A stretch of DNA of 64,000 bases from Candidatus Woesearchaeota archaeon (GCA_043819495.1 JBDRET010000030.1:5463-69462), one strand, 5' to 3'; shown: positions 13,060 through 50,350, counted from the stretch's first letter. A program made the numbers and translations. The notes: generated by a model not told the origin, from the sequence alone.

Positions 13060-13126
13060 GTTTTACTCCTTTTCATTTCGCTTTTTTTTCATCTCGGTAT
13101 CTTCTATCTATTCCTCCTTTTTTGTC

Positions 13127-13153: not shown

Positions 13154-13170
13154 GAGTGCAAAGCTTGTCT

Positions 13171-13722
13171 TTAGCTCTGCACTCCGTTGCTTGTCAGGGT
13201 CCTCTGTGACGTGTCCGCTGCATTACATCCGGCAAAGTCTGCCTTCATGTACCAGTCCTGAGGTGCTGCTGCAGGTCCATAGTTGTTGACTACGGTCACT
13301 GCTGAAGTGCCGATCTCCGTACCAGTGCTTGCTCCAGTGAAATCTGTAGCTCCGGTCAGGTTGATGCAGCTCTGTGTGCCGCTGTTAAGCACCACGCTCA
13401 GGTTCAGGTTGACGGTCCCTGTGTTGTCAAACTGGAATATTGGCACTCCATTCGACTGCACTGTTCCGCCGACTACTTTTGCATCCACGTTTGCGTCGGT
13501 CCCTGTGCTGCTGTTGAACTCTATTGCTGTTGTCGGTGCGCCTGTAGAGTTCGCATTCACAAGGGTCTCGTCTGGCAAAGTCAATGTGTACGCGACTACC
13601 GTACCTACATTGAAATTCACCTGTGTTGTCGTGCTAAGAGCCCATACCAGAGGGACTGCCAGCAATACTAACAACACGGCTATTGTTGTCTTTGTGTTTC
13701 TCATTTCTTTTCCTCCTTTCAT
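13171..13722 (-). CDS. small secreted protein: stand-alone copy of the C-terminal domain of the 2003-aa giant
   Basis: 183 aa with the signal peptide TIAVLLVLLAVPLVWALS. It aligns along its length with the last ~150 aa of the 15250..21261 product (AYTLTLP/AFSVTLP; FDNTGTVNLNLSVVLNS/YLNTGNVNLTLNIKLDS; RTLTSNGVQS/RNLYTNGTQS). Confidence 0.8.
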   Translation of the reverse strand: MKGGKEMRNTKTTIAVLLVLLAVPLVWALSTTTQVNFNVGTVVAYTLTLPDETLVNANSTGAPTTAIEFNSSTGTDANVDAKVVGGTVQSNGVPIFQFDNTGTVNLNLSVVLNSGTQSCINLTGATDFTGASTGTEIGTSAVTVVNNYGPAAAPQDWYMKADFAGCNAADTSQRTLTSNGVQS

Positions 13723-14273
13723 ATCTCACTCATCTTAGTGATCCGGATGATACCTTCTGTGGGTTTCGGATCTGCCATCTTCAGGTCAGAGGCATCAAAT
13801 ACCAGATAGTACGTGCCTCCTTCTCCGATGTTGATGTCTATGCTTGTAGACATTGATGTGTCACAGCATTTTGGCCCACTTTTTGTTGTCACTTTGCTCA
13901 TGGTGTGGTATCCTGTCTCTAACCATTCGCTGTACCTTTTTTCAGAGTAGACTACAAATTTGATTGGGTGATTAGTCTCAAAGTAGATATCATATCTTGT
14001 CCTCTCGGCGAGATCGATCTTTTTTGCAAGAGGGAACTCTGTGAAAGGTATCTTTTCTTCGAGGATTACTTCCCCTGATACTGGTCTGCTGAGTGTTGGT
14101 GTTGTCCACCCTCCATCAGCTGTTCCAGTATCCATATCTGCAGTATCCTCTGTGGTCTGCATGACCTGTGCATCTGCGCTTGCAGAGCGATCAGGTGTCT
14201 GCGGTGTACATCCGCTGAGCAGCACGATTATAGATAGTGCTGCAACCATGCAGGCCGCAATCAGTTTTCTCAT
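13719..14273 (-). CDS. hypothetical lipobox protein
   Basis: 184 aa. MRKLIAACMVAALSIIVLLSGC has a lipobox-like LSGC. There are 4-nt overlaps with both neighbours. Confidence 0.7.
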   Translation of the reverse strand: MRKLIAACMVAALSIIVLLSGCTPQTPDRSASADAQVMQTTEDTADMDTGTADGGWTTPTLSRPVSGEVILEEKIPFTEFPLAKKIDLAERTRYDIYFETNHPIKFVVYSEKRYSEWLETGYHTMSKVTTKSGPKCCDTSMSTSIDINIGEGGTYYLVFDASDLKMADPKPTEGIIRITKMSEI

Positions 14274-15196
14274 TCGTTATCACCTCCTACAACTTCAATG
14301 AAAGCTTGATAGTATGGCCTGTCGATCTTTGTCATCCCTCCGCTCGTGTAGAGGTTGAGGTAATCCTTCAGCCACATCTGTTCATATTCCTCAGGTACTG
14401 TTCCTGTGTCGAGCCCTACGACATAGTTCCCTGGTGGTGTATCTGCATGTGCAGTTATCGTCACAGCGACCTTAAGCGTCCCTCCTGGATTGTATATCGG
14501 GAAATTCGGCTCGAGTATGAATGGGTTAGGTGATGCAGTGATGTCAAAATATCCTGCCGCTTTCTCAGGATCCTGTGTGACTGACCTTGAGCCATCAGGC
14601 ATCTCAAATCCTGATTCTATATCAACAGATGGGGGGAATGCAGGCACAAGATTTATTCCCTGATATGTCTCGACGATGTAGTTGCTCTTGATGAAGAAAT
14701 GCATCTCAAGAGATTCTCCTTGCCTTATCGTTGCGACAGAGTCTGCAGGGTATGTCGCTATCCCGTATGCTCCCCACCTATTCTCAGGGGGATTCTGCAG
14801 CAGAGGCACTCCTATATCTTCGAAGTGCGGGAAGAACTCCGGCTGCATCCAGTATCTCTCTTCAAGGTTCTTGAGGTCAGTTATCCTTCCCAGACGCACG
14901 AGGTTCCTTACGCTGTAGAAGTCAGCAGGGAATTCCGGCAGCCGGACGAACATCTCTTTTGGGAGATAGTCAGGCCTTACCTGCTGCAGGGTATCGTTTC
15001 CGAGTTCCTGCGCGAGTCTCTTCTCGAGGGATTCACTGTATGGTTTTTCCTTTATTTCTGCCTGGGTATTGACTGCTCCAGGTTCAAGCTCTGGATCAGC
15101 AGGTCCGCAACCCATGAGCACTATAGTGATCAGCATCAATGCCGCAATGGTTGCGACAATCATTGTTTTTTTGTATCTCATCTTCTTGTCCTCCAT
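14270..15196 (-). CDS. hypothetical lipobox protein
   Basis: 308 aa with IAALMLITIVLMGCGP. I recognise no family. Confidence 0.7.
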   Translation of the reverse strand: MEDKKMRYKKTMIVATIAALMLITIVLMGCGPADPELEPGAVNTQAEIKEKPYSESLEKRLAQELGNDTLQQVRPDYLPKEMFVRLPEFPADFYSVRNLVRLGRITDLKNLEERYWMQPEFFPHFEDIGVPLLQNPPENRWGAYGIATYPADSVATIRQGESLEMHFFIKSNYIVETYQGINLVPAFPPSVDIESGFEMPDGSRSVTQDPEKAAGYFDITASPNPFILEPNFPIYNPGGTLKVAVTITAHADTPPGNYVVGLDTGTVPEEYEQMWLKDYLNLYTSGGMTKIDRPYYQAFIEVVGGDNE

Positions 15197-15249
15197 ATAT
15201 CATGTTCTTATCGTTGTGTCATTATTGGTATCATGTCTTTTTCTTATCA

Positions 15250-18200
15250 TCAGCTCTGTGTGCCATTGGTGTATAGATTCCTCGTCGTGCTATTGTCAGG
15301 GTATGCATTGATGAAATCCCCAAAGAACCATGTGTCAAGGGTGCCCCCTGGTGCTATGTCAGTCGCGAGCAGAAGTGGTGTCGTGGTTACATTGCTCGCA
15401 GTCGCATTATTGTATAGTATGTTTGCCCTGAGATTGAACACTGGTGGTAAAGCACTGTCCAGCTTTATGTTGAGTGTCAGGTTTACATTGCCTGTGTTGA
15501 GGTAATTGAAGAATGGCGTGCTTGAATTCTGGCAGTCATTGGTGCCTTGGACGCATGCTTCCATACCATAGTAGGTGTTTAAACTTACATTGAAGTCCAT
15601 AGCAGCTGTCGCATTCCCTCCTTCAGATGCATTGACAGGTCCTTTTCCTGGGAGTGTCACACTGAATGCGAGAAGTGTGGGTGTTACGATATTCACTGTG
15701 AAATTCCGTGTCGCACTCGTGGTAGTGTAGCCAGTCTGTCCCCAACACGTCACGTTCCAGTTGTGTGTTGTCTCTGAGAAGTTTGATATCGTTCTTGTTG
15801 TAGGTGTATTGTTCAGTGTCAGTACGTTAGATGCATTCACCACTCCATCCACAGTCAGGTTGCAGAGCATGCTTCCGTACTGGTTGCTTGTAGCTGTCCA
15901 GTTGAATGTGACTGTACTGTTGGGTGTTGAGTACGCATTTGTAGGTCCATTCAGATTTACAGTAGGATATGTTGGCGCAGGAGCATTGACGGTGAAACTT
16001 GTCGTCACTGTGCTGTTCCAGTTTCCGCTGGTGTCATTTGCAAATATCCTGACCTGGTACGCTCCGGGGATGCTTGGCGTGACAAATGATGTGTTGTACT
16101 TGGCTCCAATAGTAGGTGTCAGGGTGAAATTTGCTAGCGTCCCGTTAGGATATTGTATCTGTGCTATTACAGTACTTACCTGGATATTATCAGTCACATT
16201 TGCAGCAATCTCTACTGTTGCACCATACCCGTATTGGCTGCCGCCTATTGGCTTCAGGCCAAAGACCGACGGCGGTGTCGCGTCATACACTGTGAAGTAT
16301 GATGTTTCAGTGTCGTTAACGTGGCCGAATAGATCATATGCATAGTAGGTTATATTGTATCGTCCTAATAGGTTGGGTGCTGTGAAATTATTGCTGTAGT
16401 TGATCCCTCCTGCAGGTTCGAGATAAAGTGTGTAGTTAGTGCCATTAGGATATGCTATATTGGCTTCGACATAATTGATGTATACATTATCTGTTGCGTT
16501 GGCCTTTACCTCTATCTTTCCTCCTGTGCCGACAGTCGAACCAGGAACAGGCAATATTGCTGTAAGGTTTGGTTTCACAGGATCGGTCACTAGGAACTGG
16601 TTCCTTGTTATCTCAGAATCATCGTCAGCATTGTACACTGTTACGGTCCAGTAATATACTCCAAGGGTTTTATTTGTCTGTACCCAGTCATCTGCAGTTC
16701 CTTGTCCTGTGACTGTTATGTCTGGGCTTGTCCTTGTGAAATTGAAACCATCATACCATGTCATGTAGACTGTTGTGTACCCATCAAGGTAGAACGCCCG
16801 TCCATACACTGGTGCATCTACTTCGTATATGTACTGCAGATTGGTCCTTCCTGAATCATTGTATAGTGCTACCCCTCTTGGTGTCTCGTTTATCTTTGCT
16901 GTGAAGAACAGGCTGGTATTGGTAGATGAGTTGACATAGAATGTGGTTATCTCGCTCACTCCCATCTGGGTGTCTTGAGGTACCAGCACCTTGACATAGA
17001 ATGTTGCAGTCCCTCCGTATGGTGGCAGCACTATGTCTGCATTTCCATCACCATCATGATCAGTGAAGGGCGTCCTTAGGAAGTCTACATAAGATGTGTT
17101 CCATCCCTGTGTGCTTGTGCTATTGACCTCTATATACTCTGTCGTATTCCAGTTGTTTGTTATGTTGAACTCAAAATACTGCCTCGTGTCAGAATTGACT
17201 GTCCGGTTGTAGCTGAGTGGGGTGAATATTAGGCGTCCTTTGACCTGTGTCACTGCTTGTGAGACTACGTTATTGGTCGGCGTGACTGATGAGTTTATGC
17301 GTATAGTGGTATTGTCAAGCATCCCTGCTGTCGCTGAGCCGGGTATCGTGACCCTGATGATGATATCTTTTGACTGGCCTGAAAGGAAATATCCTGTGTC
17401 AGCCCTTCCATCACTGTCAGTGTCTGTGAGTTGTGTGCCGTTCGCGTAATATGCTGCAGTTGGCCAGCTGTTGTTTGAGCTGAGCGTCATTTCAAGGGTG
17501 TCTGCTATGTTCTGGTAATTGTAGACTGTGAAGTTGTAGGACATCAGCATGCCTTGTGCTCCTGAAGACTGCCTGAGTGATGGTGTTATCGCGATGTCGC
17601 TGACTATCGTAGTTGCGATGACAAAGCTTGACTGCTCGCTGTTGTTGAGTGATATATTAGCTATATCACGGAGGCCAAGAGCAGCTCCACTAGGCACATC
17701 CACTTTTATTATTAGAGTGGTGTATTGATTTCCTGCCAGTGTGATGTCAGGATATCCGCTACCGCTCGTGTCTGTGAGAGGAGTCTGACTCGAGTAGGGG
17801 TAATAGAATGTGATATTCCATCCTTGTGTCGATGTCTTGAGCAGGTCAAGAGTTGTTGGTGCATTTCCGCAGTTCCTGACATCATATGTGTAATATGTGG
17901 TTGTCCCGTTCTTTGTCGCTTTCTCCTGATCTCCTGGTGTGAATGTGAAGTATGAGCTTTCTGTTATGAGTACATCTCCTACATTGTCTTCGAGCTGTGA
18001 TGGGAGGTTTGTTGCAGAGCCTCTTCCTGCTGCAGCCTTAAAGTTTATTGCTCCAGGTGATGAGAAGCTCATGTCACTCCATTTGACCCTAGTCTCGAGT
18101 TCAGTACCTAGCACAGAGCCTCCAAGCACATTTGACTCTAGAGATCTGGGATTGGCTATTGCGCCAGGCATATCATATCCATCACCTTGCATGAGATCTC

Positions 18201-21200
18201 CTGTGACTCCATTTACAGGGACATAATCATAGAGGTCTGCGTCGTACTGCCGGTTTGTCCCTGACCAGACGAACTTGACTACCTTGTCTGTGGATTTCAT
18301 GTATCCATCAAGATTGTAATCAAGATAGACTATCATAGATACCTGCCTGCTGCCGCTGTATGTCCTGTGATAGTAGAAGTACAGGTATGTAGGATCATAT
18401 GTGTATGTGAATACAGTCATATCCCGGTCACTCGTCTGGATGTCGTCAGGGTCGCCTGTCTGTTCTGTAAGGTCTGTCACGTAATTGTTCGGGTTTGCGA
18501 GTATCGCGTCCCAGTCGCTCATGTCTCCATCTATAGATATGCTCTTGAGGGTTGGCGCGAGGATATCTCCTGAACCTGTGGTTGATGCAGAGCAGGACGG
18601 GAACTGGGTATCCACTACAGATAATAGTGTCGAGCTGTTGCTCTTTCCTCCTCCTGTCTCGCTGAAGTATAATGTGTAGTTCCAGTCTCCTAGGAAGTAT
18701 ACGTTAGGACTCACTATCACTCGTGTGGATGGTCCTGACCATGGCTTGTTTATCTCGACAAGTGTCCCGTTCCTTGTCACGTTGTAGAATCCGCCGTTAC
18801 CTGTGAGGTTCCAGTAGAGCTGTGTTGCATTGCCAAGCTCAGTGATTGTATTTCCTGGTGGTGTTGAGTTGATTGGTGCTGCTGTTGAGTTTATTGTCAC
18901 ATTTTCAGTCATCAGATCTATTGTGGCGCCTGCACCTGCTGCAGTGTCAAGGCTCACTATGTAATCTCCGATCCTTGCAGGAGAATATATTGCTGACCCA
19001 CTGCAGGCCTGCACTGTCCAGTTGACAGGCATGTCAGTGTTCTGCGGATGTGCTGCAGGAACTGTCATCGTGCCTGATGTGCTGTTGTAGGTGCAGGGTG
19101 TTGCTGCAGCGCATGCTTGGGAGATATTTATCACGCGCATCACTGCTCCTGCATAGCATGTCGCGTTTATCTTCTTGCCATTGTTGGTTGCATTCAGCCC
19201 GACTACCCATGGGAGGGTCGGAGCACCACCATTCCCTATCCTGTACGTCGCGAGTATCTTTATGTTGCTTCCTTCTTTGACTGTTGTCATGTTTGCAGTG
19301 AATGCAGTGTCATCCAGGCTCCTCACTGCGTCATGTATGTAGTCGAACTCAAGATATGTGGGACTGGCCTCAGAATCTACAATCTTGAAGTCGAATTTGT
19401 TGGTATCTTGTGTTATGTTCCTGATCCTTATGTAATCCCATCCGCCAGTCTTGTCCAGAATTCCTGATACGCCAAGGATTGGAGCAGTGGTGCCTGCTTT
19501 GTATACTTCGATCCAGGTATTCTTACCTTTTGGATTCCTGTAATAGATATCTATTATGTTGCCATCAGTGAGATTCTGTTCAAAGGTCACCCTTACGTAC
19601 TCATCTTCGTTTATGCTCTCAGACCATATACTATCCAATGATCTTACATCAGCATACATATTGGATATCAGGGCATAGTTAGCATCAAGATGTTCTGCAT
19701 CGCTTATGTTGATCTCAGCAAACCCAGGATCATCAGGTGTGAGTGTAAACGTGTATTCTTCTCCGGGAATAATGTTTGTCTTGAACAGCTCCCATGTCCC
19801 ATCGCAGCTCTGTGCATCGAAGTCCCATTCTTTACATTTGTACAACTGGGTCCCAGTAGCAAGCACTGTTACTGTTGCAGTCGTGAAGTTCACTGAGGTA
19901 GGATCGATAGCATATACTTCTGCATAACCTGAAAGGTCCCCTGTCTCTTCGACATCATCTACCCTGACAAACTCAGTGGTATTGCCAAACACAGTCATAT
20001 CATCGAATTCTATCTTCTTGACCTTGAGTCCGGGTTCTGTGAAGTTTATCTTGACTTTATACTTGCCTTTGGCAAGATTTTCTTTCTTGACTTTATTCCC
20101 TGTACCTTTCTCCTCAAACTCAATAGATGATGCAAGCACCCTTCCTTTTGCATCCTTGACTTTCGTATCTACTGTGGTAGGAGTCTCTGCAATCCCTTGT
20201 GTCAGATCTTCAACAGCATACTTTATCTTGTTGACCTTGAGCAGTGTTCCTGTCTCTACCTCGAAACGTATTGTGTACTCTGTGCTGTTAATGCCTTTTG
20301 GCAGTGTGCAGGTCTGCACGCAGATATCTGAGAATTCTGCCTGAGGTGCTTCCTCAAAGTTGGCATCCAATGTCACAGTCTCGCTCTGCACTGAGTCGAA
20401 GTGCACGTCTCCTTCTTCAAGGCTCTGGTTCAGGTATATGACTTGCGCTGTGACCTCATTCTCTAGTGTGGTGCCGTACTGCTCATAGTATATGTAGAGT
20501 GAAGAGTCCCACGATGTCTCTGTGGGTGCAACGCCGGACAGGGCGCAACAGTCTGCTGCTCCATTGCATACTGTTGTCGCAATTCCTGTTGTTAAAGATG
20601 TTATCACCCATCTGGTGCAGAGTTTATCCTGATCCGCTTCCCAGTTGAATGATGTTTCATGGACAGTGAAGTCGACTGCATCTGCTCTTGTGTATGCAGT
20701 GCCGTCGTCATTCGCATCCCATCTTGTGCCTGATTGGTATGCGAGATCGATGTTGATCTGCTTTTCGCTGGCAGGTTCTTCTGGAATCTTTATTACTGGT
20801 TCTTGCTCTGTCTGATTTTCTTGTGTGATTTCTTCTACGGGGATTGCAGGCAGTCCCTCAGTGTCATTTCCGACACCAACAACCATTCCTGTTATTGTAT
20901 TGCTTGATGCCGTATCGATCCTTGAACTGTCAATTATGAGATATTCTTTTTCTTCTGTCACAAGGTATGCTCTTACCAGTCCATCACCCAAAAGCTCGCC
21001 GTCCAGTTTCATGCTTCTCAGGTTGAACTCTGCAGGGTATTCTTCCATCTCCCACTGCATCTCTGAATCTGATGCGATTATCCAGGACACTGATTGCTCG
21101 TGTGATGTCAGGTTCTCTTCGCCTAATATCTGCAGTCCTATGATTGAAAGTTTACCGGTGAGCGCAAGCGTCGCGAATATGATCATGACTACTATCACTG

Positions 21201-21261
21201 CCAGTACAGATACCAAACGTACCTTCCTGTTCTTTTCAATATCTTCTTTGGTTATCATCAT
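15250..21261 (-). CDS. giant surface protein (2003 aa) with N-terminal anchor, NEW3/CARDB-like and Ig-like repeats
   Basis: N-terminal TM LVSVLAVIVVMIIFATLALTG. Three repeats of the type ..STQGWN.....TD.DG..D..L......I.V.VP (nt ~16950-17900). Tandem Ig-like domains also occur in the 1194-aa protein. Sequon-dense. Confidence 0.9.
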   Translation of the reverse strand: MMITKEDIEKNRKVRLVSVLAVIVVMIIFATLALTGKLSIIGLQILGEENLTSHEQSVSWIIASDSEMQWEMEEYPAEFNLRSMKLDGELLGDGLVRAYLVTEEKEYLIIDSSRIDTASSNTITGMVVGVGNDTEGLPAIPVEEITQENQTEQEPVIKIPEEPASEKQINIDLAYQSGTRWDANDDGTAYTRADAVDFTVHETSFNWEADQDKLCTRWVITSLTTGIATTVCNGAADCCALSGVAPTETSWDSSLYIYYEQYGTTLENEVTAQVIYLNQSLEEGDVHFDSVQSETVTLDANFEEAPQAEFSDICVQTCTLPKGINSTEYTIRFEVETGTLLKVNKIKYAVEDLTQGIAETPTTVDTKVKDAKGRVLASSIEFEEKGTGNKVKKENLAKGKYKVKINFTEPGLKVKKIEFDDMTVFGNTTEFVRVDDVEETGDLSGYAEVYAIDPTSVNFTTATVTVLATGTQLYKCKEWDFDAQSCDGTWELFKTNIIPGEEYTFTLTPDDPGFAEINISDAEHLDANYALISNMYADVRSLDSIWSESINEDEYVRVTFEQNLTDGNIIDIYYRNPKGKNTWIEVYKAGTTAPILGVSGILDKTGGWDYIRIRNITQDTNKFDFKIVDSEASPTYLEFDYIHDAVRSLDDTAFTANMTTVKEGSNIKILATYRIGNGGAPTLPWVVGLNATNNGKKINATCYAGAVMRVINISQACAAATPCTYNSTSGTMTVPAAHPQNTDMPVNWTVQACSGSAIYSPARIGDYIVSLDTAAGAGATIDLMTENVTINSTAAPINSTPPGNTITELGNATQLYWNLTGNGGFYNVTRNGTLVEINKPWSGPSTRVIVSPNVYFLGDWNYTLYFSETGGGKSNSSTLLSVVDTQFPSCSASTTGSGDILAPTLKSISIDGDMSDWDAILANPNNYVTDLTEQTGDPDDIQTSDRDMTVFTYTYDPTYLYFYYHRTYSGSRQVSMIVYLDYNLDGYMKSTDKVVKFVWSGTNRQYDADLYDYVPVNGVTGDLMQGDGYDMPGAIANPRSLESNVLGGSVLGTELETRVKWSDMSFSSPGAINFKAAAGRGSATNLPSQLEDNVGDVLITESSYFTFTPGDQEKATKNGTTTYYTYDVRNCGNAPTTLDLLKTSTQGWNITFYYPYSSQTPLTDTSGSGYPDITLAGNQYTTLIIKVDVPSGAALGLRDIANISLNNSEQSSFVIATTIVSDIAITPSLRQSSGAQGMLMSYNFTVYNYQNIADTLEMTLSSNNSWPTAAYYANGTQLTDTDSDGRADTGYFLSGQSKDIIIRVTIPGSATAGMLDNTTIRINSSVTPTNNVVSQAVTQVKGRLIFTPLSYNRTVNSDTRQYFEFNITNNWNTTEYIEVNSTSTQGWNTSYVDFLRTPFTDHDGDGNADIVLPPYGGTATFYVKVLVPQDTQMGVSEITTFYVNSSTNTSLFFTAKINETPRGVALYNDSGRTNLQYIYEVDAPVYGRAFYLDGYTTVYMTWYDGFNFTRTSPDITVTGQGTADDWVQTNKTLGVYYWTVTVYNADDDSEITRNQFLVTDPVKPNLTAILPVPGSTVGTGGKIEVKANATDNVYINYVEANIAYPNGTNYTLYLEPAGGINYSNNFTAPNLLGRYNITYYAYDLFGHVNDTETSYFTVYDATPPSVFGLKPIGGSQYGYGATVEIAANVTDNIQVSTVIAQIQYPNGTLANFTLTPTIGAKYNTSFVTPSIPGAYQVRIFANDTSGNWNSTVTTSFTVNAPAPTYPTVNLNGPTNAYSTPNSTVTFNWTATSNQYGSMLCNLTVDGVVNASNVLTLNNTPTTRTISNFSETTHNWNVTCWGQTGYTTTSATRNFTVNIVTPTLLAFSVTLPGKGPVNASEGGNATAAMDFNVSLNTYYGMEACVQGTNDCQNSSTPFFNYLNTGNVNLTLNIKLDSALPPVFNLRANILYNNATASNVTTTPLLLATDIAPGGTLDTWFFGDFINAYPDNSTTRNLYTNGTQS

Positions 21262-21518
21262 CTCATCTCGCTTGTCATCTCACCTGTCATCTCTGATACT
21301 GCCTGCTCTGGGCTCTTGAGTGTGTACACTCTCTTTCTGCTGTCGTCGGGGTTGAGCTGTATATTCATCCACCCGTTCTTTTTCAGGAATGATATCACGA
21401 CGCTGGTGTTCTGCTCAAGAAGGAGGTCTGCTTGTGCGTGATCAAACTCATTCTGATTGAATCTAGTCCATAGAATCGCATACTTCTGCATTATCCACTT
21501 TGGTAGTGGTCTGGCCAT
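21258..21518 (-). CDS. small putative winged-helix DNA-binding protein
   Basis: 86 aa. Its stop overlaps the giant gene's start (ATGA). ...VVISFLKKNGWMNIQLNPDDSRKRVYTLKSPEQAV resembles a wHTH recognition helix plus wing. The assignment is tentative. Confidence 0.5.
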   Translation of the reverse strand: MARPLPKWIMQKYAILWTRFNQNEFDHAQADLLLEQNTSVVISFLKKNGWMNIQLNPDDSRKRVYTLKSPEQAVSEMTGEMTSEMR

Positions 21519-21540
21519 TAGCGGGTTGTGAAGTACCTTT

Positions 21541-21550
21541 CATATAAAAG
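21541..21550 (-). promoter_or_regulatory. TATA-box candidate (minus-strand CTTTTATATG) for the wHTH/giant operon
   Basis: 23-32 nt upstream of the ATG at 21518, which suggests a leaderless mRNA. Confidence 0.45.
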
Positions 21551-21555
21551 ATTAT

Positions 21556-21608
21556 CTATTTGCTAATTATTTTATTAATTTGCTAATTAGTTTAGCCATT
21601 TGATAATG
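21556..21608. promoter_or_regulatory. three phased operator-like repeats ATTTGCTAATTA (exactly 20-bp period)
   Basis: Identical 12-mers at 21558-21569 and 21578-21589, with a 9/12 copy at 21598-21608, immediately upstream of the TATA candidate. Confidence 0.45.
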
Positions 21609-23027: not shown

Positions 23028-23036
23028 TCAAAAAAG

Positions 23037-38498: not shown

Positions 38499-38534
38499 AG
38501 AAGGTGTTATGAAGTGGAAAAAGAAACGAGCGGC

Positions 38535-40826: not shown

Positions 40827-40868
40827 GTATGAAATATGGATTGACTATTATAATATAAGATAAAAACG

Positions 40869-41561: not shown

Positions 41562-41570
41562 GGTGCGAAA

Positions 41571-43532
41571 ATGAAGATGAATAAAACAATAACAATCCTG
41601 GCATTCATGCTTGTACTTTTAAGCACCTTGGCGATGGCAGAGTGGGTCAAGGACCATAACAGCTGCACTGACAATTATCAGTCACAGAACTGTGCTGCAA
41701 GTCAGAAAGCTTGCGCGTGGGTCTCAAGCACATTGTACTGTGCCTTACCTGCAACAGTCAATGCGGCAATACCGGGAAGCCCGAGTACAATAAACTATAA
41801 TGCGCCCTCACAAGCTCTTGGTGGTGGTTATGTGTTTAATTGTCTTAGGACAAACACTGTGGCGTGTAATGTTTGGGAATGTCAGAGTGATCTTTCATGT
41901 TCTAATGTGGGTCGAAAGACTACCTGTGCTGGTGGTGCTACGACCTTCTCTTGTGATGTGTGTCGTGATGGTTATCATTATTGTGATGGTAGTTATGTTG
42001 ATGGTAATGGTTGTGAGATAGTGGAAGGGTCTACACCATTCCCTTCAGAGCCTAATTCCCATTATGGTGTGGATGACTGCGTCAATCCTATATGCAATAC
42101 CAACTATCTTGATTGTGATGGTGATCTGGGAACTACAGGCACTGGTTGCGAAGTCCTTGATGGCTCTGTATGTTATGTTGGGCCAGTACCTGGGACTGTG
42201 ACTGGTTGCAGCGGAGGGGCTGCTAATTGTGTCGTGGATCCTGTGCATCATATGACTGGTACAGAAGCGGCATATAGCAGCGGAAATGCAAACTTGTGGT
42301 CCACACAATATGGCAGCGGATGGCTTGCTAATTTCACTAGAGCGTATGCAGCACCTACGAGCAACTCTAATATAACATTCGGCATCAACAACAATGGCTG
42401 TATAGTATTCAATGATTCATCTTCACAATGCACTGCAGGTGTTGCTGCAGGTACTGCTGGCTGGGTAGATGATGGTTCTGTCGTCAGGTTGGATAATTCA
42501 GCTGATAAGGTGGGGATTGGCACATCTAATCCTGTAGCGGCGCTTCACGTCAATATTACTGCAGGTGGTGCTGCAGCATTCGGTGGAGGGTCTACAACAG
42601 CATCAGAGAATTATGCGTTTGCCTCAGGATATAACAGTAGGGCAACCGCTGAAGGATCAGTTGCTATGGGCATGTTCCCTTATGCGAATGGATATGGTTC
42701 TGTAGCTATAAGCAGGGCAACATCTGGTGGGGCTTACTCTGTTGCGATCGGTGAATATGCTGTCGCTAGTAACAATAGGGCGTACTCTTTTGGTATAGGG
42801 ACGACTGCGAGCGGGGTTTATTCTTTTGCCATTGGTAACTCGACTACAGCAAGTGCAACAAGTTCAATGGCGATCGGTAATGGTGTCACTGCAAGTGGAA
42901 TTAAATCAATAGCATTCGGTCACGGGATAGAAGTCAGCGGCTCCGAATCTATAGGTGTAGGGTTGGATTCTATACACAGGACAGTCTCTAGGAATAATGT
43001 CATGTCCATAATGGGTGGCAATGTAGGCATCGGTACGACTTCTCCAAACGCAACACTCCACGTCGCAGGAGACATAAACGTCACTGCAGGCAATGATATA
43101 TGTATTGATGGAGGAAATTGTCTTGGAACACTCAGTGCAGGAGCAACATTTGTGGGTAAAACTTCAGGGTATTACGATGCAGATTTTACATCCGCAACGC
43201 CTGCAGGTTTTGAAGGTTACAAGGCTGCGAATTATCTGTGCAATGCTAGCTTTACAGGGGCTCACATCTGCACGACGCATGAGATAGTGTATACGATAGC
43301 TAACAGAGATCTGACTGTCATATCGGATTGGAGCATGAAAGCATGGATTGCAGTAGGTCCTTCAAAATATTCAGGTATCGGTGTGAAGTTCGTGAATGAC
43401 TGCCATGGTTTCACTGATGATGGTTCTGCAGGAAACGCATTCGGCAACTGGTGGTATTTCAACCAGACGACCGGAGGGGTCGGTGAGACAGGTACTTGTG
43501 ACAGCGCGCTGCAGATAGCGTGTTGCATGTGA
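41571..43532 (+). CDS. secreted fibre-like protein with Cys-rich N-domain, VGIGT..P...LHV motifs, YadA-head-like repeats and Cys-rich C-terminal domain
   Basis: 653 aa with the signal peptide MKMNKTITILAFMLVLLSTLAMA. Repeats of the form S.A.G..[ST].A (SVAMG, SVAIS, SVAIGEYAVAS, SFGIGTTASG, SFAIGNSTTAS, SMAIGNGVTAS, SIAFG) span nt ~42603-42965. Confidence 0.8.
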   Translation: MKMNKTITILAFMLVLLSTLAMAEWVKDHNSCTDNYQSQNCAASQKACAWVSSTLYCALPATVNAAIPGSPSTINYNAPSQALGGGYVFNCLRTNTVACNVWECQSDLSCSNVGRKTTCAGGATTFSCDVCRDGYHYCDGSYVDGNGCEIVEGSTPFPSEPNSHYGVDDCVNPICNTNYLDCDGDLGTTGTGCEVLDGSVCYVGPVPGTVTGCSGGAANCVVDPVHHMTGTEAAYSSGNANLWSTQYGSGWLANFTRAYAAPTSNSNITFGINNNGCIVFNDSSSQCTAGVAAGTAGWVDDGSVVRLDNSADKVGIGTSNPVAALHVNITAGGAAAFGGGSTTASENYAFASGYNSRATAEGSVAMGMFPYANGYGSVAISRATSGGAYSVAIGEYAVASNNRAYSFGIGTTASGVYSFAIGNSTTASATSSMAIGNGVTASGIKSIAFGHGIEVSGSESIGVGLDSIHRTVSRNNVMSIMGGNVGIGTTSPNATLHVAGDINVTAGNDICIDGGNCLGTLSAGATFVGKTSGYYDADFTSATPAGFEGYKAANYLCNASFTGAHICTTHEIVYTIANRDLTVISDWSMKAWIAVGPSKYSGIGVKFVNDCHGFTDDGSAGNAFGNWWYFNQTTGGVGETGTCDSALQIACCM

Positions 43533-43542
43533 GGTGGCGAAG

Positions 43543-46500
43543 ATGAAGATGAATAAGACAATAATAATTATGACTTTTATTGCAGTACTGCTCAGTGTTT
43601 TCGTCGCTGCTGATGTAAGCTGGACAAATCATCCGTCCAATTGTGAGGCCAGTTATGCTGCATTATCCTGTGCAGTCATAGGTGAAGAGGTCTGTGGTTA
43701 TAATAGTGGAACTGGCGCTATCCTCTGTAATGATACTGATGTGATGCCGAATCCTCCAGGCAATGTCTACAATTCGATAGCTGATAATTATGGTACTACA
43801 GGAGGATTTGTAATCAACTGTGCTGCATCTCCTGATGGTGGTACGTATAATTGTGATAATGGTGGCGCTTACTGGTGCGAGAAGGATGATACCTGTTGGA
43901 ACTCAAATAACCGTAAGACTAATTGTTTTGCAGGGAAGTGGCAAGATGATGCCGGTGCGTACGCCTGTGGTGTATGCAGAGATAATTATTACAACTGTAC
44001 GGGCGGTGCTTCTTGTACTAACTATACTGGTCAGAGTTGTACTGCACCAGGTGGTCTTCCGGGAACTTTAAGCTGTTCTGCTGGTGGCGGAAGCCCTAAT
44101 TGTAATAATGGTGGCGGTAGTCCGTATACTTGTACTTGTATAGGTTCCCCTTCGCACCATATCACAGGAACAGAATCATTATTCAGTACTGTTAATGCTA
44201 ACCTATGGTCTACTCAGGTAGGTACTGGCTGGATAGCCAATTTCACGAGCACAAACTCTGACAACACATTAGGTATAGACAATGATGCCTGTGTCAGGTT
44301 CGATGATGGTACGACCCAGTGCACTGCAGCATCAGGTGGCGGCTGGAACACAAGTGATGGTAAGGTATATCTGAGCAACACAAGCGCTAAGGTAGGGATA
44401 GGCACGACGAGTCCTGGTGCTGATCTGGATGTTACAGGGACTGTGTCATCTATTTTGGTGAACTCGACTGGTTCGGGTGCTTCAGATTTTGGTACGATAA
44501 GTTTCAGCCATAATGGTGGAAACTTGTGGAGTGTTGGCACGGGAGGTACGGGTACTTCTGCTAATGGTCATTTATTTTTCTATAATAGCCAAGGAGGTGG
44601 AAGCATACCTATGGTTATTAAGAATGGTACAGGCAACATCGGCATCGGTACGTCAAGTCCAAACACGAAGCTCTATGTGTATGATGACATTGACAGTAAT
44701 CTCATACTGACTATAGATAATCCAAATTCTGGAAGTAGTGCCGTATCGACCTTAGCTTTGGTCCAGAATGGTGCAAACGCTCGCATATGGAATATAAATG
44801 GAGGGATTGGTTTTTCAGCAGATGCAGATGACACTGGCAGTTTCATGTTCGAGACCCAGACAGGGAGCAGTTATCATAATCGACTGACCATTGAAAATGG
44901 CGGCAATGTCGGCATCGGTTCTTCAAATCCTGGTTCCATATTGGATGTTGAAGATTATGATGCTGGTTATGGTAATAACATCACACAGTTGACTGTAGGT
45001 GTGCCTGATGGTGTCGGAAGTAATTGGACTTCTCAGATCATGATGGAAGCGACATTCGAGAACTTCACAGTAGATACTGGCAGCAGGAATACTGGATTGA
45101 TCCAGGCAGGGTATGATGGTGGTCCATGGGATACTGCATATCTTAGCCTTGGTGTATCTGGAAATGATTGTCTTACTGATGGAGGTACTACACCTTGCGA
45201 ACGGATGCGCATAGTATCAGGTGGCAACATTGGCATCGGCACGTCAATTCCCGACCAGGACCTTACGATAGAGGATCCGGGTGATGATGTTGCAATTCAT
45301 TTGAAGAAGGTTATACAGATATCGAGTGTGAATTATGGAATTACTGGAGCTAATGATGCTTCAGTAGGTACGCGCAGTTGGGATGGTGTTTCAGGGTCAG
45401 GTGCAGGCTCTATATTTTTTGCAGAACCGGTCCAGACGACTTATTACTTCAAGTCAACTAACTATGGGTTCTCTATACCTTCTGATGCAGTCATAGATGG
45501 CATAGAATTCAGATTATCGAGATTAGGACAGCCTTATTGGGCAGGTGATAGTTATTGTTATGGTGCAGATAATAGTATTAAGATAGTCAAGGGAGGGATA
45601 ATAGGATCTACAGAGAAGAGTACGGGAACTGTATGGAGTTCTCTTGGTGGGGGTAGTGCGACAACCACATATGGTGGCCCTTCTGATCTTCTGGGTGAGA
45701 CCTGGACTCCAGCAGACATAAATTCTGCTAACTTCGGTTTAGTTTACTCAGCGAACATGGGTGGTTCGAATGAAGTATGTGAGTTTTCAGTGACTGTTGA
45801 TTCGATGACAGTCTATTACACAGGTACTGGATGGACTGCAGGTATGGATCATAGTGACTCTAATTCCTTCAAGATATCTTTGTCTGGAGATGTAAGCGAA
45901 AATCCTGCTTTGGTGATAGACACGTCCAAAGATGTGTTCCTGAATCATGATCTTGATGTTGGTAACAATCTTGATGTGGAAAATAATGTGCATATATCTG
46001 GTGACTTGGATGTTGCAGGAGGAGATATAACTACAGCAATACTGCGTTTTGGTACTGGAACCAGTAGTGGCCAGTATGAGTTTGAGGATGGTGGGGTGTG
46101 TGTTGGTAGTGGCGGTTGTACTGCTCCGACTACTGATGGTGATCTTCTTGTAGAAGGAGATGTGACTATAAGTGGTGGTGACTTGTTTGCAACCAGTTTA
46201 AGGTTCGGCAGTGCATCTAGCAGCGGCCTGTATGAGTTTGAGGATGGTGGTGTGTGCATAGGTGATGGAGGATGTACTGCTCCGACCACTGATGGTAACC
46301 TTCTTGTTGCAGGAGATGTGCTGACAACTGATATACTTAAGACAGGAGGTACTAATTTTTTCACAGGAGGGTGCACTGATAAGCAGTATATCACAGGAAT
46401 AAGTTCTGCAGGAGCCATAAGCTGTTCAGATGACAGTGCATCGTCTTCAGTCAATTGCGGAACCACTAATGCAGTAATAAAGCGGACAGGCACTGATACG

Positions 46501-47595
46501 TATGGTTGTTCAGGAGTGATTGACGCATCGGATGCAACAGCAATCACTATAAGTTCTGCTGAATATGTTGGGATAGGTACTACAACACCTGGCGAACCCC
46601 TTGATATAGAATACACTTGCTCAAGCTGTAATGTTGGTGTGGCATCATTAGGTAACTCTGGGACATATGCTGATGGGGATTATTCTCTGGCGGTAGGCTA
46701 TGATTCATATACGTCTATAGCAGGAGATTATGGATTCGCATTAGGATATGGTTCACGTTCTACTTATTGGGGTGCAATAGCGATGGGTGAATACGCAATC
46801 TCGCAAGGCTCTGTTTCCGTAGCCATAGGTGAAAGAGTATTTGCAGGAGGGATGCAGGCAGTTGCAATAGGTAATTATGCTAAAGCATCAGGTCGTGCTT
46901 CGACAGCATTAGGCAACCACGCTAAAGCTGACGTTGATTACAGCGGTGCATGGGGAGGGGACGCATGCGACGCTACTGCAACAAACTGTGACGTTGATTA
47001 CTCGGGTGTCTTCGGAATTTTCGGTGCTCTGTGCGTCTCTACTGCGGCAGGGATTTGCCCTGATGTACCAGATGGAAATATCCGGTATGATACAGGCATA
47101 GCAGCATTCGATCTTGCAGAAGGTTTCCCGACTGATAAGCAGTTGGATAAGGGAGATGTTGTTGTCATTGTAGATAATGTGACTATAGGTCATACAAATA
47201 TTCCTTATGACACAAGAGCTGCAGGAGTGATAAGCACATCACCCAATATAGCATTCAATTTCGACGAAGCAGATGGTGACTTCAGTTCCTTGGGCGGCAT
47301 TGAGAATTACACGATGCCACTAGACCGAGCACCTCTATCCCTTGCAGGCAGAGTCCCTGTCAAAGTTACTGACGAGAACGGTCCGATAATGTTAGGTGAC
47401 TCTTTGACGACATCATCAAAGCCAGGATATGCTATGAAGTGGTCACTTGTTGATCTTGACGCTGCATCAGACATAAATGAACTTAAGCAGATGATGAAGG
47501 AGAATGACCGCAGGAGGAATGCAATCATCGGCAAGGCTCTTGAAGAGCACAGTTCAGGAGATGGGCTGATAATGATGCTTACAGCATCACGTTAA
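43543..47595 (+). CDS. large secreted fibre-like protein (about 1350 aa), paralogous N-domain, multiple VGIGT..P motifs, YadA-head-like repeats, distinct C-terminal domain
   Basis: Same MKMNKT start and the same upstream TGAGGTG SD as the previous gene, so the ATG at 43543 is preferred over the track's GTG at 43534. N[IV]GIG[TS]S.P...L.V occurs five times. Repeats LAVGYDSYTS, FALGYGSRST, AIAMGEYAISQGSVSVAIGERVFA, AVAIGNYAKASG and STALGNHAKA span nt ~46678-46932. Confidence 0.85.
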   Translation: MKMNKTIIIMTFIAVLLSVFVAADVSWTNHPSNCEASYAALSCAVIGEEVCGYNSGTGAILCNDTDVMPNPPGNVYNSIADNYGTTGGFVINCAASPDGGTYNCDNGGAYWCEKDDTCWNSNNRKTNCFAGKWQDDAGAYACGVCRDNYYNCTGGASCTNYTGQSCTAPGGLPGTLSCSAGGGSPNCNNGGGSPYTCTCIGSPSHHITGTESLFSTVNANLWSTQVGTGWIANFTSTNSDNTLGIDNDACVRFDDGTTQCTAASGGGWNTSDGKVYLSNTSAKVGIGTTSPGADLDVTGTVSSILVNSTGSGASDFGTISFSHNGGNLWSVGTGGTGTSANGHLFFYNSQGGGSIPMVIKNGTGNIGIGTSSPNTKLYVYDDIDSNLILTIDNPNSGSSAVSTLALVQNGANARIWNINGGIGFSADADDTGSFMFETQTGSSYHNRLTIENGGNVGIGSSNPGSILDVEDYDAGYGNNITQLTVGVPDGVGSNWTSQIMMEATFENFTVDTGSRNTGLIQAGYDGGPWDTAYLSLGVSGNDCLTDGGTTPCERMRIVSGGNIGIGTSIPDQDLTIEDPGDDVAIHLKKVIQISSVNYGITGANDASVGTRSWDGVSGSGAGSIFFAEPVQTTYYFKSTNYGFSIPSDAVIDGIEFRLSRLGQPYWAGDSYCYGADNSIKIVKGGIIGSTEKSTGTVWSSLGGGSATTTYGGPSDLLGETWTPADINSANFGLVYSANMGGSNEVCEFSVTVDSMTVYYTGTGWTAGMDHSDSNSFKISLSGDVSENPALVIDTSKDVFLNHDLDVGNNLDVENNVHISGDLDVAGGDITTAILRFGTGTSSGQYEFEDGGVCVGSGGCTAPTTDGDLLVEGDVTISGGDLFATSLRFGSASSSGLYEFEDGGVCIGDGGCTAPTTDGNLLVAGDVLTTDILKTGGTNFFTGGCTDKQYITGISSAGAISCSDDSASSSVNCGTTNAVIKRTGTDTYGCSGVIDASDATAITISSAEYVGIGTTTPGEPLDIEYTCSSCNVGVASLGNSGTYADGDYSLAVGYDSYTSIAGDYGFALGYGSRSTYWGAIAMGEYAISQGSVSVAIGERVFAGGMQAVAIGNYAKASGRASTALGNHAKADVDYSGAWGGDACDATATNCDVDYSGVFGIFGALCVSTAAGICPDVPDGNIRYDTGIAAFDLAEGFPTDKQLDKGDVVVIVDNVTIGHTNIPYDTRAAGVISTSPNIAFNFDEADGDFSSLGGIENYTMPLDRAPLSLAGRVPVKVTDENGPIMLGDSLTTSSKPGYAMKWSLVDLDAASDINELKQMMKENDRRRNAIIGKALEEHSSGDGLIMMLTASR

Positions 47596-47656
47596 GTAGG
47601 ACTGACAAATTAGGATAAAAAAGAGGTGAACATTCATAACACATAGACGGAGCATC

Positions 47657-50350
47657 TTGATATCTGTACTTGTGTTCATCCTAGCGTCAGCAGCTCTCGC
47701 AAGCCCGCAGACAACAAGCAACTTCAACTGCTCTATCTATGAGCGCATAGGAATACCTGCAGATTTCACCCCTCTTGTCAACTTCTTTTATGGGAATGAT
47801 TCCCACGCAGAATATGGAAATGAATCTAATTATGATTGGACTGTTGCATGCAAGTCTAACATCACAGAGATAGGTTACGGTTGTACTGAAACAGCAGTGA
47901 GTGTCCTCCAACTCTACAACTACACTGATGCGCACGTATCTGTGGATGATTACTATAACAGGAATGTCTGTTTCAATATGACTAACGACTCGGTCGTCTG
48001 GCATTATAATATCTCAGATACAGGCATGACTCCCGCTGGTTACGAATGCGCATTCTCAATATTCCAGATGGAAGATGCCCACGTGTATGATTGTGATAAC
48101 ATAAACTCAAGCTATAATGTCAACCTGCGTATAACTGAAAAGCCGCTGGGTACCATGACTATTGTCGGGCCTAACGGTACGATACTCACAGCTACGCAGA
48201 ATGTATTCCTGAATCTGACTCAGGATGCGAAATATGGCCTGGACAAGTGCCGTTGGGCGAATGATGACGCGGCGGACCTGGTTCTGGCGCCATGGGAGAA
48301 CTGCACAAATTACAAGCCATGGATACTCAGTGATGGAGAAGGTAACAAGACAGTGTATTATCAGATCATCGACGTGCTCGGAGTTCTATCAAATCCTATA
48401 AACGCATCGATAGACTTCTCTTATACCCAGGACTACACCGCTCCGACATCACCGATAGTATATGATGGTCTTGAAGGTGATGACATCGACTGGTGGAACA
48501 GTAACACCACCCTGCACGCACATTGGTTCAATGCGACAGATGATATCTCTGTGATATACTACAGATACCGCGTGCTTGAGAACGGTTCGTGCTACGGCGA
48601 TTGCAATTGGACAGAAGCAGGACTCAACACTTCAGTGACAGTCACAGGACTTTCTCTTAACGAGAGCTGGTGGTACTCTTTTGAGGTCCAGCCATCCAAT
48701 GCTTTCGGTATAGATGGAGCCCCTTCACAATCTAATGGGACTATGATAGATATTACAGCACCAGCAATACCTTCAGTAAACAGCACAAGCCATCCTCAAG
48801 AGAATCTATCTTACCCTGTACGGGATGCAGAGCTCAACTGGACAGCAGAAGACATCATGATGAATGGCAACATGAGCGGTATTGCAGGATACTCGTTCAT
48901 GCTTGACACAAGTCCAGGTACTGCACCAGATGATATATTGGATGAGAGGTATCTTGAAACCATACTATCAGGAAGTCAAGGCACATCCAGCCAATTGTTG
49001 CGGGCAGACAATGAGACCTCATCACCTCATACTTATGCAGTTTTCAAACAGATACATACCAACCTTACAGAGAATGATTCTCTGACGATCACAGCATATC
49101 TTGCTGAACTCACATCAGATTATGATGATCCTATGGGTGTCAAGGTATATCTGATAAAGACCGCTCCAGGAGCAGGTATCTTGACATTCTCACAGGAAGA
49201 TAAAGCGATATCTGACATATCAAACACAAGCCAGGATATCATATACGCAGATACTATGGATCTTGCAAGAGCATACACTTTCAGTGTGACAGTCAATGAG
49301 ACTGTCGATATCAATTCCAATGATATATATGTCGTCGTGAGCGGTGACACCTCTGATGATGATAACAGGAACAACCTCTCGATTGCAGGTACTGCTGCTT
49401 CTGCAGGTGCTACTTCAGTATACTTGTGTGATGACACCAACTCATGTTCTAATGTCACAAGCACTGCAGATTATACAATTAAAGTAGAGCGCTCAGATGC
49501 AGGTGACGGATGGTCTACCATGTACAAAGGCCTCTCTGATGGTGTGTACTATTTCCATGTCAAGGCAAAGGACATCGCAGGCAACTGGGGAGAGCCGACG
49601 CATTACAGGATTGCTGTCGCTGCAGGTGGTGTTAGCGTATCGATAGTGCATCCTGAGAATGGAGAACATCTCAAGATGGGACAAGGATCGTTGAACACGA
49701 GTGTGGAAGTCGTGGTCTCAGGGAATGCTACAGTCCGTGTGACTGTCATCCATCCGGATAATAGTGTCTACACGACTGACGATCAGGTCTTCAGCACAAG
49801 ATATGAATTCAGTGATGTTCTCCTAGAGCTGGGCAGGAATGAGATCTACGCTACAGCGAACACATCGTCAGGTGTAGTGACTGTCTCTTCAAGCGTCTAC
49901 GTCACGGTATCGCGCGGAATCATACCTGAGAAGAACGCGACATTGATGATCGCTTATGGTGCATGTGCCCCTTCATCCAACCCATACCTGTGCACTGCAG
50001 CAGAAGGTGATTCATTGGTCGGCTTTGCAGCAGAATACCCTGATGATGTAGGTACAGGATACCTTTCAGCAAACACCTCAGGAAGGACAATCAAGATATT
50101 CATGTCCAAGGTGTTCAATGTTGATGCTGTTGCTGATAAGTTTGATGATGATGAGTTCCTTGATGAGGAGAACCCCTCTTTCGGTTATCCTGAGGAATCA
50201 ACAAGGTTTGTCATGCAGAACCAGTTGAGGTATGATGACATATTCATATCTGGTGATAAGATATTTGCTCCAGGCAAGTATGAGCTTTACATAATACATA
50301 ATGGTGTGACTCCTGATGGGAGGGTTAACCTTTCAATAGAGATACGATGA
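47657..50350 (+). CDS. secreted paralogue of the giant protein's C-terminal module (copy 3) with extra ~160-aa N-domain
   Basis: Colinear with copies 1 and 2 from nt ~48150. The start codon is uncertain: the track uses the TTG at 47657, but the reading frame is open from 47630 and a GAGGTG SD sits at 47623-47628. Confidence 0.8.
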   Translation: MISVLVFILASAALASPQTTSNFNCSIYERIGIPADFTPLVNFFYGNDSHAEYGNESNYDWTVACKSNITEIGYGCTETAVSVLQLYNYTDAHVSVDDYYNRNVCFNMTNDSVVWHYNISDTGMTPAGYECAFSIFQMEDAHVYDCDNINSSYNVNLRITEKPLGTMTIVGPNGTILTATQNVFLNLTQDAKYGLDKCRWANDDAADLVLAPWENCTNYKPWILSDGEGNKTVYYQIIDVLGVLSNPINASIDFSYTQDYTAPTSPIVYDGLEGDDIDWWNSNTTLHAHWFNATDDISVIYYRYRVLENGSCYGDCNWTEAGLNTSVTVTGLSLNESWWYSFEVQPSNAFGIDGAPSQSNGTMIDITAPAIPSVNSTSHPQENLSYPVRDAELNWTAEDIMMNGNMSGIAGYSFMLDTSPGTAPDDILDERYLETILSGSQGTSSQLLRADNETSSPHTYAVFKQIHTNLTENDSLTITAYLAELTSDYDDPMGVKVYLIKTAPGAGILTFSQEDKAISDISNTSQDIIYADTMDLARAYTFSVTVNETVDINSNDIYVVVSGDTSDDDNRNNLSIAGTAASAGATSVYLCDDTNSCSNVTSTADYTIKVERSDAGDGWSTMYKGLSDGVYYFHVKAKDIAGNWGEPTHYRIAVAAGGVSVSIVHPENGEHLKMGQGSLNTSVEVVVSGNATVRVTVIHPDNSVYTTDDQVFSTRYEFSDVLLELGRNEIYATANTSSGVVTVSSSVYVTVSRGIIPEKNATLMIAYGACAPSSNPYLCTAAEGDSLVGFAAEYPDDVGTGYLSANTSGRTIKIFMSKVFNVDAVADKFDDDEFLDEENPSFGYPEESTRFVMQNQLRYDDIFISGDKIFAPGKYELYIIHNGVTPDGRVNLSIEIR

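Follow-up and report, generated by a model that had tools for sequence, protein, structure and literature searches.

What does it mean when the gene for a very large surface protein is accompanied by free-standing copies of that protein's own C-terminal domain? The question is raised by a 64,000-nt stretch of DNA (the window; C30:5463-69462 in the 1.68-Mb, 79-contig assembly of the genome referred to here as G000) from a Woesearchaeota-type (DPANN) archaeon, in which this layout occurs three times. A preliminary description of the window had noticed the three cases and read them as possible C-terminal cassette exchange, with a structural partnership between the large and the free proteins as the alternative. 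The region is a hypervariable surface-protein island that holds three different shared-module architectures, called mod1, mod2, and mod3 here. The answer that we consider probable, while leaving ample room for doubt, is that none of the three is a recently exchanged C-terminal cassette, and that the shared modules are constant assembly or binding parts of partner proteins. Finding a free copy of a large protein's end beside its gene is thus no sure sign of cassette switching; in this island, it is the shared end that stays constant.

The three relationships are real, with similarities far beyond chance in BLASTP comparisons. First, the 183-aa protein P0001 aligns with residues 1856-2003 of the 2003-aa protein P0002; the alignment spans 150 aa at 31% identity (E 5e-16) and runs colinearly to the C-terminus of each. 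The last 150 residues of the large protein align with the entire mature small one. Second, P0004 (770 aa), P0005 (897 aa), and residues ~4420-5153 of the 5153-aa giant P0003 are 45-48% identical over ~740 aa (E 0.0). Third, the 230-aa protein P0006 is 45% identical over 179 aa (E 9e-36) to the C-terminal region of the 653-aa protein P0007, rising to 50% over the last ~147 aa. The three modules are mutually unrelated, and tblastn searches with each module against the whole 1.68-Mb assembly found no further copies in G000. The genes belong to two divergent operons. The minus-strand operon encodes, in order, the 2003-, 308-, 184-, 183-, and 1194-aa proteins; the plus-strand operon opens with a winged helix-turn-helix (wHTH)/ATPase_2 regulator, followed by the 5153-aa giant and the 770-, 230-, 653-, 1353-, and 897-aa proteins.

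Is the free mod1 protein a spare end for the 2003-aa protein, or its partner? A HMMER profile search covering 1.84 billion representative proteins recovered 323 mod1 clusters, and mod1 is a hitherto unannotated protein family: P0001 has no match in Pfam, NCBIfam, or PDB sequences, including the TasA, bundling pilus, and thread families. The free form is a well-conserved family of secreted proteins of ~175-190 aa, with 50 matches at 44-74% identity. The best 150 HMMER hits, pooled with free homologues from a separate homologue search, gave 198 parsed proteins, of which 141 are short and 57 are long (254-3529 aa). In 56 of the 57 long proteins, mod1 is exactly C-terminal, with the domain end offset by -3 to +4 residues; in the database entry for the 2003-aa protein, for example, HMMER places the domain at 1848-2002 of 2002. 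A simple and testable rule thus holds for the family: mod1 either stands alone or forms the very end of a larger protein. The two forms are also largely separate in descent, with 12 label changes between free and fused on the domain tree, compared with 47.6 when labels are shuffled, and a pure free clade of 98 sequences.

The free and fused forms differ at one place. A motif, TTTxVxFNV, is conserved at the N-terminus of 122 free copies (T27 in 89%, F31 in 90%). Among the 57 fused copies, F31 is found in 18%, and positions 23-33 are occupied in 23-56%, without conservation; their matches begin at profile position 20-39. From position 38 on, free and fused copies are conserved alike. In P0001, the mature N-terminus reads STTTQVNFNV, with alternating hydrophobic residues, and an AlphaFold2 (AF2) model of the protein (predicted local distance difference test score, pLDDT, 87) leaves residues 23-38 unstructured (pLDDT 61-76). 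The eight best Foldseek matches of this model are CS17, TLP-1b, CfaB, Csu, TLP-1a, the Pyrobaculum bundling pilus (7ueg), Caf1, and CsuA/B, followed by FimA and the FimH pilin domain. All of the top eight are donor-strand assemblies (PMC11494351, PMC9715654), and one of them, TLP-1, is a donor-strand fibril whose N-terminal strand is likewise disordered in AF2 (PMC11494351).

The pair travels together. A related genome, G002, carries both forms: its free copy of 175 aa shares 69% identity with P0001, and the end of its 947-aa protein shares 60% with the end of the 2003-aa protein, whereas free copies compared with fused ones are only 31-34% identical. The operon itself, with the order [X-mod1][308-like]([184-like])[free mod1][Cys-rich membrane protein], is found again in distant genomes, where X is a protein of 1456 aa (L035) or 325 aa (L037), both ending in mod1. 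Neighboring mod1 genes encoding 182- and 344-aa proteins are found in G024, and a pair is found in G008 as well. Since mod1 occurs in just 3 of 151 genomes sampled across the order, the system is accessory, and it is inherited as a pair. Its operon behaves as an insertion/deletion unit. G010 is without the whole minus-strand operon (8059-21518 in the window), and HIT-family genes adjoin the regulator there (G010:C2, L017-L019). G006 retains a 1413-aa homologue of the N-terminal part of the mod1 giant, yet no mod1 copy was found in that genome.

These observations fit a mechanism in which a donor-strand-type filament is built from mod1 domains. Its shaft subunit would be the free ~180-aa protein, with the conserved N-terminal segment as the donor strand, and the 2003-aa protein, whose C-terminal mod1 is without that strand, would be a giant adhesin incorporated at one fibre end, as tip or anchor, much as FimH is to FimA. 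Strand-exchange polymerization and the polarity of the fibre are features that we infer. A more specific version is that DPANN archaea use this operon to make a donor-strand pilus of a kind not described before, one that needs no chaperone and to which proteins of up to ~3500 aa are attached via a C-terminal pilin-like domain; this is a tentative proposal to which we give somewhat less than even weight.

Could the two forms simply be paralogues? Partial tandem duplications may have enlarged an adhesin repertoire in which each protein acts alone and the module is a stalk or spacer. The surface-protein islands of DPANN archaea are variable, as this explanation would have it, and for all three pairs the partnership of free and fused copies is read from sequence and gene context. 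A spacer, however, would hardly be confined to the C-terminus in 56 of 57 architectures, and paralogues acting alone would hardly be co-inherited in one operon across distant genomes, with the free copy the more conserved (44-74% identity) and in possession of a strand of its own. Placement, co-inheritance, conservation, and the free-specific strand together argue for a joint function of the pair, and simple paralogy is an unlikely, if respectable, explanation. A different kind of joint function is that free copies regulate the large proteins, as caps, terminators, or soluble competitors for the same receptor or docking site. A subunit paralogue in Sulfolobus threads has indeed been proposed as a cap (PMC9715654). 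A regulator would not be expected to outnumber its target 141 to 57 and to be the better conserved of the two, and the donor-strand-like segment that free mod1 keeps is expected of a shaft subunit rather than of a cap. The free mod2 proteins described below, which are without a membrane anchor, are more readily seen as competitors; as an account of the whole locus, regulation nevertheless seems very unlikely. Structural partnership, which the preliminary description had offered only as the alternative, is the better reading for mod1.

Several points weigh against a donor-strand filament. The Foldseek matches are weak (E 0.016-0.19 for the top eight, none at or below 0.001; TM-scores 0.3-0.45), with probabilities up to 0.96. 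A weakly similar stretch still takes the place of the N-terminal strand in the mod1 giants of G000 and G002. Some “free” sequences sit within fused clades, and these may be gene fragments. Lastly, Pfam and NCBIfam searches detected no PapD-like chaperone or usher among the 308-, 184-, and 1194-aa operon proteins. For this reason, membership of the chaperone-usher family is ruled out, that family being an analogue only, and the filament, if it exists, would be of the chaperone-free archaeal kind.

How does the proposed system compare with those already known? In chaperone-usher pili, the C-terminal pilin-like domain of the adhesin (FimH, CfaE, CsuE) is homologous to the small shaft subunit (FimA, CfaB, CsuA/B) encoded in the same operon, and an N-terminal donor strand is found on the shaft subunit only. 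The mod1 pair has the same arrangement, and pilins of this group are its best fold matches. The mod1 system differs in having no PapD-like chaperone, usher, outer membrane, or detectable sequence similarity, in an adhesin part of up to ~3400 aa, in its archaeal host, and in that its polymerization is presumed. A second comparison is with the archaeal donor-strand filaments (Sulfolobus threads, Pyrobaculum and haloarchaeal bundling pili, and Pyrodictium cannulae) and bacterial TasA/TapA. These share with mod1 small, Sec-secreted, probably N-glycosylated beta-sandwich subunits whose N-terminal strand is disordered in AF2 models, and the top fold matches include the Pyrobaculum pilus (7ueg). In Sulfolobus threads, the subunit Saci_0406 has a co-transcribed, paralogous accessory subunit, Saci_0405 (PMC9715654). 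The accessory partner in the mod1 system, in contrast, is large, comprises many domains, and has the subunit domain at its very end; the operon also codes for a pair of conserved lipoproteins and a polytopic, Cys-rich membrane protein, and Pfam, NCBIfam, and PDB sequence searches link mod1 to none of these filaments. If our reading of mod1 is correct, it would be a fourth kind of archaeal donor-strand filament and the first with a large two-part adhesin.

The genes of the mod1 operon all lie on the minus strand. P0001 (13171-13722) has a signal peptide, the conserved mature N-terminus, and a beta-sandwich domain that ends in NGVQS; databases start the protein at M7, giving 177 aa. P0002 (15250-21261) has an N-terminal hydrophobic anchor or signal, Ig-like (immunoglobulin-like) domains, and mod1 as its last ~150 residues (15253-15708). 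Between them are genes for two predicted lipoproteins without a match in Pfam and NCBIfam scans, one of 184 aa (13719-14273; ..LLSGC..) with a homologue in L035, and one of 308 aa (14270-15196; ..LMGC..) that is the most conserved operon partner, at 56-63% identity in distant genomes. The lipobox-like sites, LSGC and LMGC, follow the signal peptides of the two proteins (13719-15196). The operon closes with the 1194-aa protein (9475-13059). It combines a DNRLRE/CBM96 domain with Cys-rich repeats at 836-955, which relatives also conserve, and with a long membrane region at the C-terminus that is polytopic; anchoring or assembly of the mod1 system is a conceivable role for it. If the filament exists, a new machinery for its assembly or anchoring would be formed by this protein together with the two lipoproteins.

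Does mod2, with its three copies, behave as an exchangeable cassette? Cassette exchange would have free copies act as donors that recombine into the large gene and so alter its C-terminal specificity. The modules are homologous, arranged in tandem in one orientation, and could recombine; the three copies in G000, however, are just 54-56% identical in nucleotide sequence and do not cluster with one another to the exclusion of other genomes. Sliding-window and segment trees gave no sign of concerted evolution in G000. This agrees with the preliminary description, which had excluded recent exchange and had put identity in the best-conserved stretch at roughly 70-75% by eye; the best 90-nt windows reach 73-76%. 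A tree of 24 mod2 copies resolves three position-specific clades (Shimodaira-Hasegawa-like approximate likelihood-ratio test, SH-aLRT, 99/100/100), which points to orthologous lineages that predate the radiation of the genus. Independent orthologous lineages are what the preliminary description had named as the outcome that would speak against exchange. Sister genera (G012 and G016) have a single mod2-terminated giant immediately upstream of pilin-like genes, whereas the genus of the window has three mod2 genes per locus, with variable fibre genes between the second and the third, and every contiguous locus in the genus keeps exactly one copy of each lineage. By sequence, then, mod2 appears to have been triplicated at the base of the genus. 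Retention of one copy of every lineage also argues against paralogues that simply multiply a repertoire.

There are traces of exchange within mod2 in other genomes. Short patches in paralogues of G002 and G010 reach 79-90% nucleotide identity. Gene conversion was considered for the 90%-identical patch in G002 and rejected, as the patch falls in the universally conserved YYFHVKAKDxAGNWG and constraint explains it better. In G011, the three copies form one clade in the first third of the module (ultrafast bootstrap, UFboot, 99; SH-aLRT 99), which is suggestive of homogenization by gene conversion, although the approximately unbiased (AU) test is not formally significant (p 0.08-0.11) and the position clades are not rejected in that segment. 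For the last third of the module, in contrast, within-genome clustering is rejected (p 4e-48). The G011 record itself (L033/L034, CAZNGE010000022.1) carries the label “uncultured Methanosarcinales archaeon,” which conflicts with the Woesearchaeota/Nanoarchaeota names of homologues and with the small genomes of the order; this is probably a mislabel and was not relied on.

What varies among mod2 proteins is the other end. In G005, a bare 750-aa protein, comprising a signal peptide and a mod2 of the giant's clade, comes right after the wHTH/ATPase_2 regulator (L010; G005:C47, 1495-3747 and 3840-4931), which implies that the ~4400-aa N-terminal part of the giant is dispensable or lineage-specific. 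The first mod2 gene encodes a 1063-aa version in G006. In G010, it combines a 160-aa head of the distal type with beta-helix repeats and a giant-type module, and the second gene has beta-helix repeats ahead of a mid-type module; the third gene of G011 encodes 1844 aa. Heads have been reshuffled among the mod2 genes of G010, G011, and G003, and the parts upstream of the conserved modules range from 0 to ~5900 aa among relatives, the longest mod2 heads being made of beta-helix repeats. Mod2 would thus be the constant end and the heads the mobile part. Polymorphic toxin and cassette systems have a constant N-terminal part, variable C-terminal tips, and promoterless orphan cassettes. The resemblance to polymorphic toxins (Rhs; contact-dependent inhibition, CDI) lies in a large secreted protein followed by further copies of its C-terminal region. 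Here, however, a conserved C-terminus and a variable N-terminus give the reverse of the toxin architecture, and every copy is complete, having its own start codon and signal peptide, the latter kept, as had been claimed, by all free copies with complete 5' ends in relatives. The copies group as orthologous lineages with DNA identities of 54-56%, there are no immunity-like small genes after the modules, and there are no near-identical repeats. Cassette exchange in G000 is largely refuted; even with the homogenized segment in G011, the short similar patches, and the mosaic fibre genes, including a chimera in G000, to its credit, we regard it as highly improbable. Exchange of C-termini therefore does not describe the mod1 and mod2 cases, where the C-terminus is conserved and the N-terminus varies. 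Over evolutionary time, the mosaicism that the preliminary description had made the mark of exchange is nonetheless found in part: in the reshuffled mod2 heads, suggestively in G011, and in the fibres.

What, then, might mod2 do? It would be a 740-aa string of Ig-like/fn3 domains forming the constant C-terminal part of three paralogous secreted proteins. Its Pfam matches are Ig-like only (Big_13 in 18, Y_Y_Y in 15, and fn3 in 5 of 21 members), and such generic domains could also be stalks of unconnected paralogues. Searches of P0004 against PDB chains and with the mod2 profile returned nothing meaningful. With pilin-like genes and the motor of a type IV pilus encoded immediately downstream, the module is most likely a common docking or assembly part, a role that we infer from the gene order; the physical link to the pilus machinery is presumed, a point that counts against this role. 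It is also difficult to fit a simple pilus-tip model to the giant, which has a predicted membrane hairpin in mid-protein. For mod2, structural partnership is plausible.

The suggested docking role would resemble that of the C-terminal domain of PilY1 tip adhesins, the closest parallel. These are likewise large, Sec-secreted proteins in which the C-terminal domain is conserved and the adhesive N-terminal parts vary, present as several paralogues and encoded beside small pilin genes and a type IV pilus motor. Myxococcus xanthus, for example, has three PilY1 paralogues with minor-pilin clusters for its bacterial type IVa pili. The mod2 proteins differ in that the module is Ig-like/fn3 rather than a beta-propeller, in the mid-protein hairpin of the giant, and in that their interaction with pilins is putative. 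Membership of the PilY1 family is ruled out, as a Pfam search found no match to the PilY1 beta-propeller (PF05567) in mod2 proteins and found Ig-like families instead.

All three mod2 genes are on the plus strand. The giant (P0003, 23037-38498) has a signal peptide, NosD/beta-helix repeat units, the mid-protein hydrophobic hairpin, Cys-rich repeats, and mod2 as its last ~735 residues (36297-38495). Two strongly hydrophobic segments at residues ~3290-3350 (32910-33080) separate the beta-helix arm from the Cys-rich/Ig arm; they suggest a hairpin in the membrane from which both arms extend outside the cell. The N-terminal arm (24883-32162) consists of diverged repeat units of ~1.2-2.5 kb with NosD/beta-helix and a DxDxDG calcium-type motif, and such units also precede mod2 in different genes of relatives. 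The 770-aa protein (P0004, 38514-40826), of the “mid” lineage, has mod2 directly after the signal peptide. The 897-aa protein (P0005, 47657-50350), of the “distal” lineage, has a signal peptide, a 160-aa Cys-rich head, and then mod2 (48143-50347).

The third case is of a different nature, and here the idea of alternative ends survives in a modified form. The gene after the “mid” mod2 gene begins with ..ALAQVQSHxLSEIRxID.. in five genomes and continues into fibre repeats, and the C-termini differ: mod3 in G000 (230 aa) and G002 (319 aa), Peptidase_S74 in G010, and other ends in G006 and G011. The fibres would thus resemble those of phage tails in that the N-terminus is constant and the C-terminal tip alternates, and the 230-aa protein would be their shortest version. 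The preliminary description had seen that protein as a copy of a C-terminal domain, which holds for its mod3 part but overlooks the N-terminal segment ..ALAQVQSHRLSEIRIID.., conserved at the same gene position in relatives. On the plus strand, the 230-aa minimal fibre (P0006, 40869-41561) has a signal or anchor, the conserved N-terminal segment QVQSHRLSEIRIID, and the Cys-rich mod3 tip domain (~41124-41558). The 653-aa fibre (P0007, 41571-43532) combines a Cys-rich N-domain common to the 1353-aa fibre, YadA_head repeats, and mod3 (~43086-43529). The 1353-aa fibre (43534-47595) has the same Cys-rich N-domain, GIGT-type repeats, YadA_head repeats, and a C-terminal domain that differs from mod3.

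The 653-aa gene appears to be a chimera. Two junctions on the plus strand, J1 (41557-41596) and J2 (43528-43568), each contain the end of mod3, a stop codon, a Shine-Dalgarno-like GGTG, and the MKMNKTI codons of the next fibre gene. They are nearly identical over ~40 nt, with flanks that are ~65-70% identical, and G002 holds only the two parental fibre gene types. The duplicated junction is explained by one tandem duplication of the segment that comprises mod3, the junction, and the start of the next fibre gene, which would make the chimera the product of a single, old segmental duplication.

Phage tail fibres and tailspikes resemble these proteins in their conserved N-termini, alternating C-terminal tips, and GIGT-type and YadA_head repeats, in the Peptidase_S74 domain of the G010 orthologue, and in the birth of a chimeric gene by duplication. 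Peptidase_S74 is an intramolecular chaperone of the endosialidase type, as is typical of phage tail fibres, and was detected at the end of the 1001-aa fibre of G010 (L019:3740-6745) at E 6e-16; Pfam searches gave no match to it in the three G000 fibres. An autocleavage C-terminus of the Peptidase_G2 type was considered for the 1353-aa fibre of G000, the 1053-aa fibre of G002, and the 1225-aa fibre of G006, and was dropped in the absence of a Pfam match. Unlike tail fibres, the genes are chromosomal, lie in a conserved cellular operon with no phage genes nearby, and encode signal peptides.

The mod3 tip is possibly lectin-like and ligand-binding. The top 50 Foldseek matches of its model are all C-type-lectin-like, with E values of at least 0.011 and TM-scores of 0.15-0.3; the model has low confidence (pLDDT 59), which limits what this fold assignment can bear. 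Mod3 has no Pfam or NCBIfam family, P0006 has no meaningful sequence match among PDB chains, and the module is rare, with 9 clusters in a search limited to proteins of similar length. A diversity-generating retroelement acting on lectin-like tips was considered and rejected, as near-identical template/variable repeats are absent and none of the window proteins scanned against Pfam matched a reverse transcriptase.

What are the functional implications of this island? DPANN archaea live attached to other cells, and to our knowledge almost nothing has been established about the means of attachment. The island unites, beside a type IV pilus motor, the mod1 family, a triplicated docking-type module with interchangeable heads, and tail-fibre-like proteins with alternative tips. 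The mod1 family, which combines hallmarks of donor-strand filaments with giant adhesin partners, is the most interesting of these elements, although its status is that of a candidate; if the proposal holds, it would be a candidate organelle by which episymbionts hold their hosts.

The plus-strand operon closes with five small pilin-like proteins, whose N-termini are of the class III type, as well as a T2SSE ATPase and a pair of T2SSF platform proteins (50361-59661, plus strand), all encoded in the same direction as the mod2 and fibre genes and with synteny kept at the family level. The window also codes for a prepilin peptidase together with the archaeal class-III pilins, homologues of its proteins carry the names Candidatus Woesearchaeota or Nanoarchaeota, and genomes of the same order span 0.6-2.3 Mb, all of which marks the organism as a DPANN-type archaeon. 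Within the 1353-aa fibre gene, a 117-nt sequence is repeated in tandem at 46048-46320 with a spacing of 156 nt; the copies are 81% identical and encode ..FEDGGVC.GxGGCTAPTTDG.LLV.GDV..

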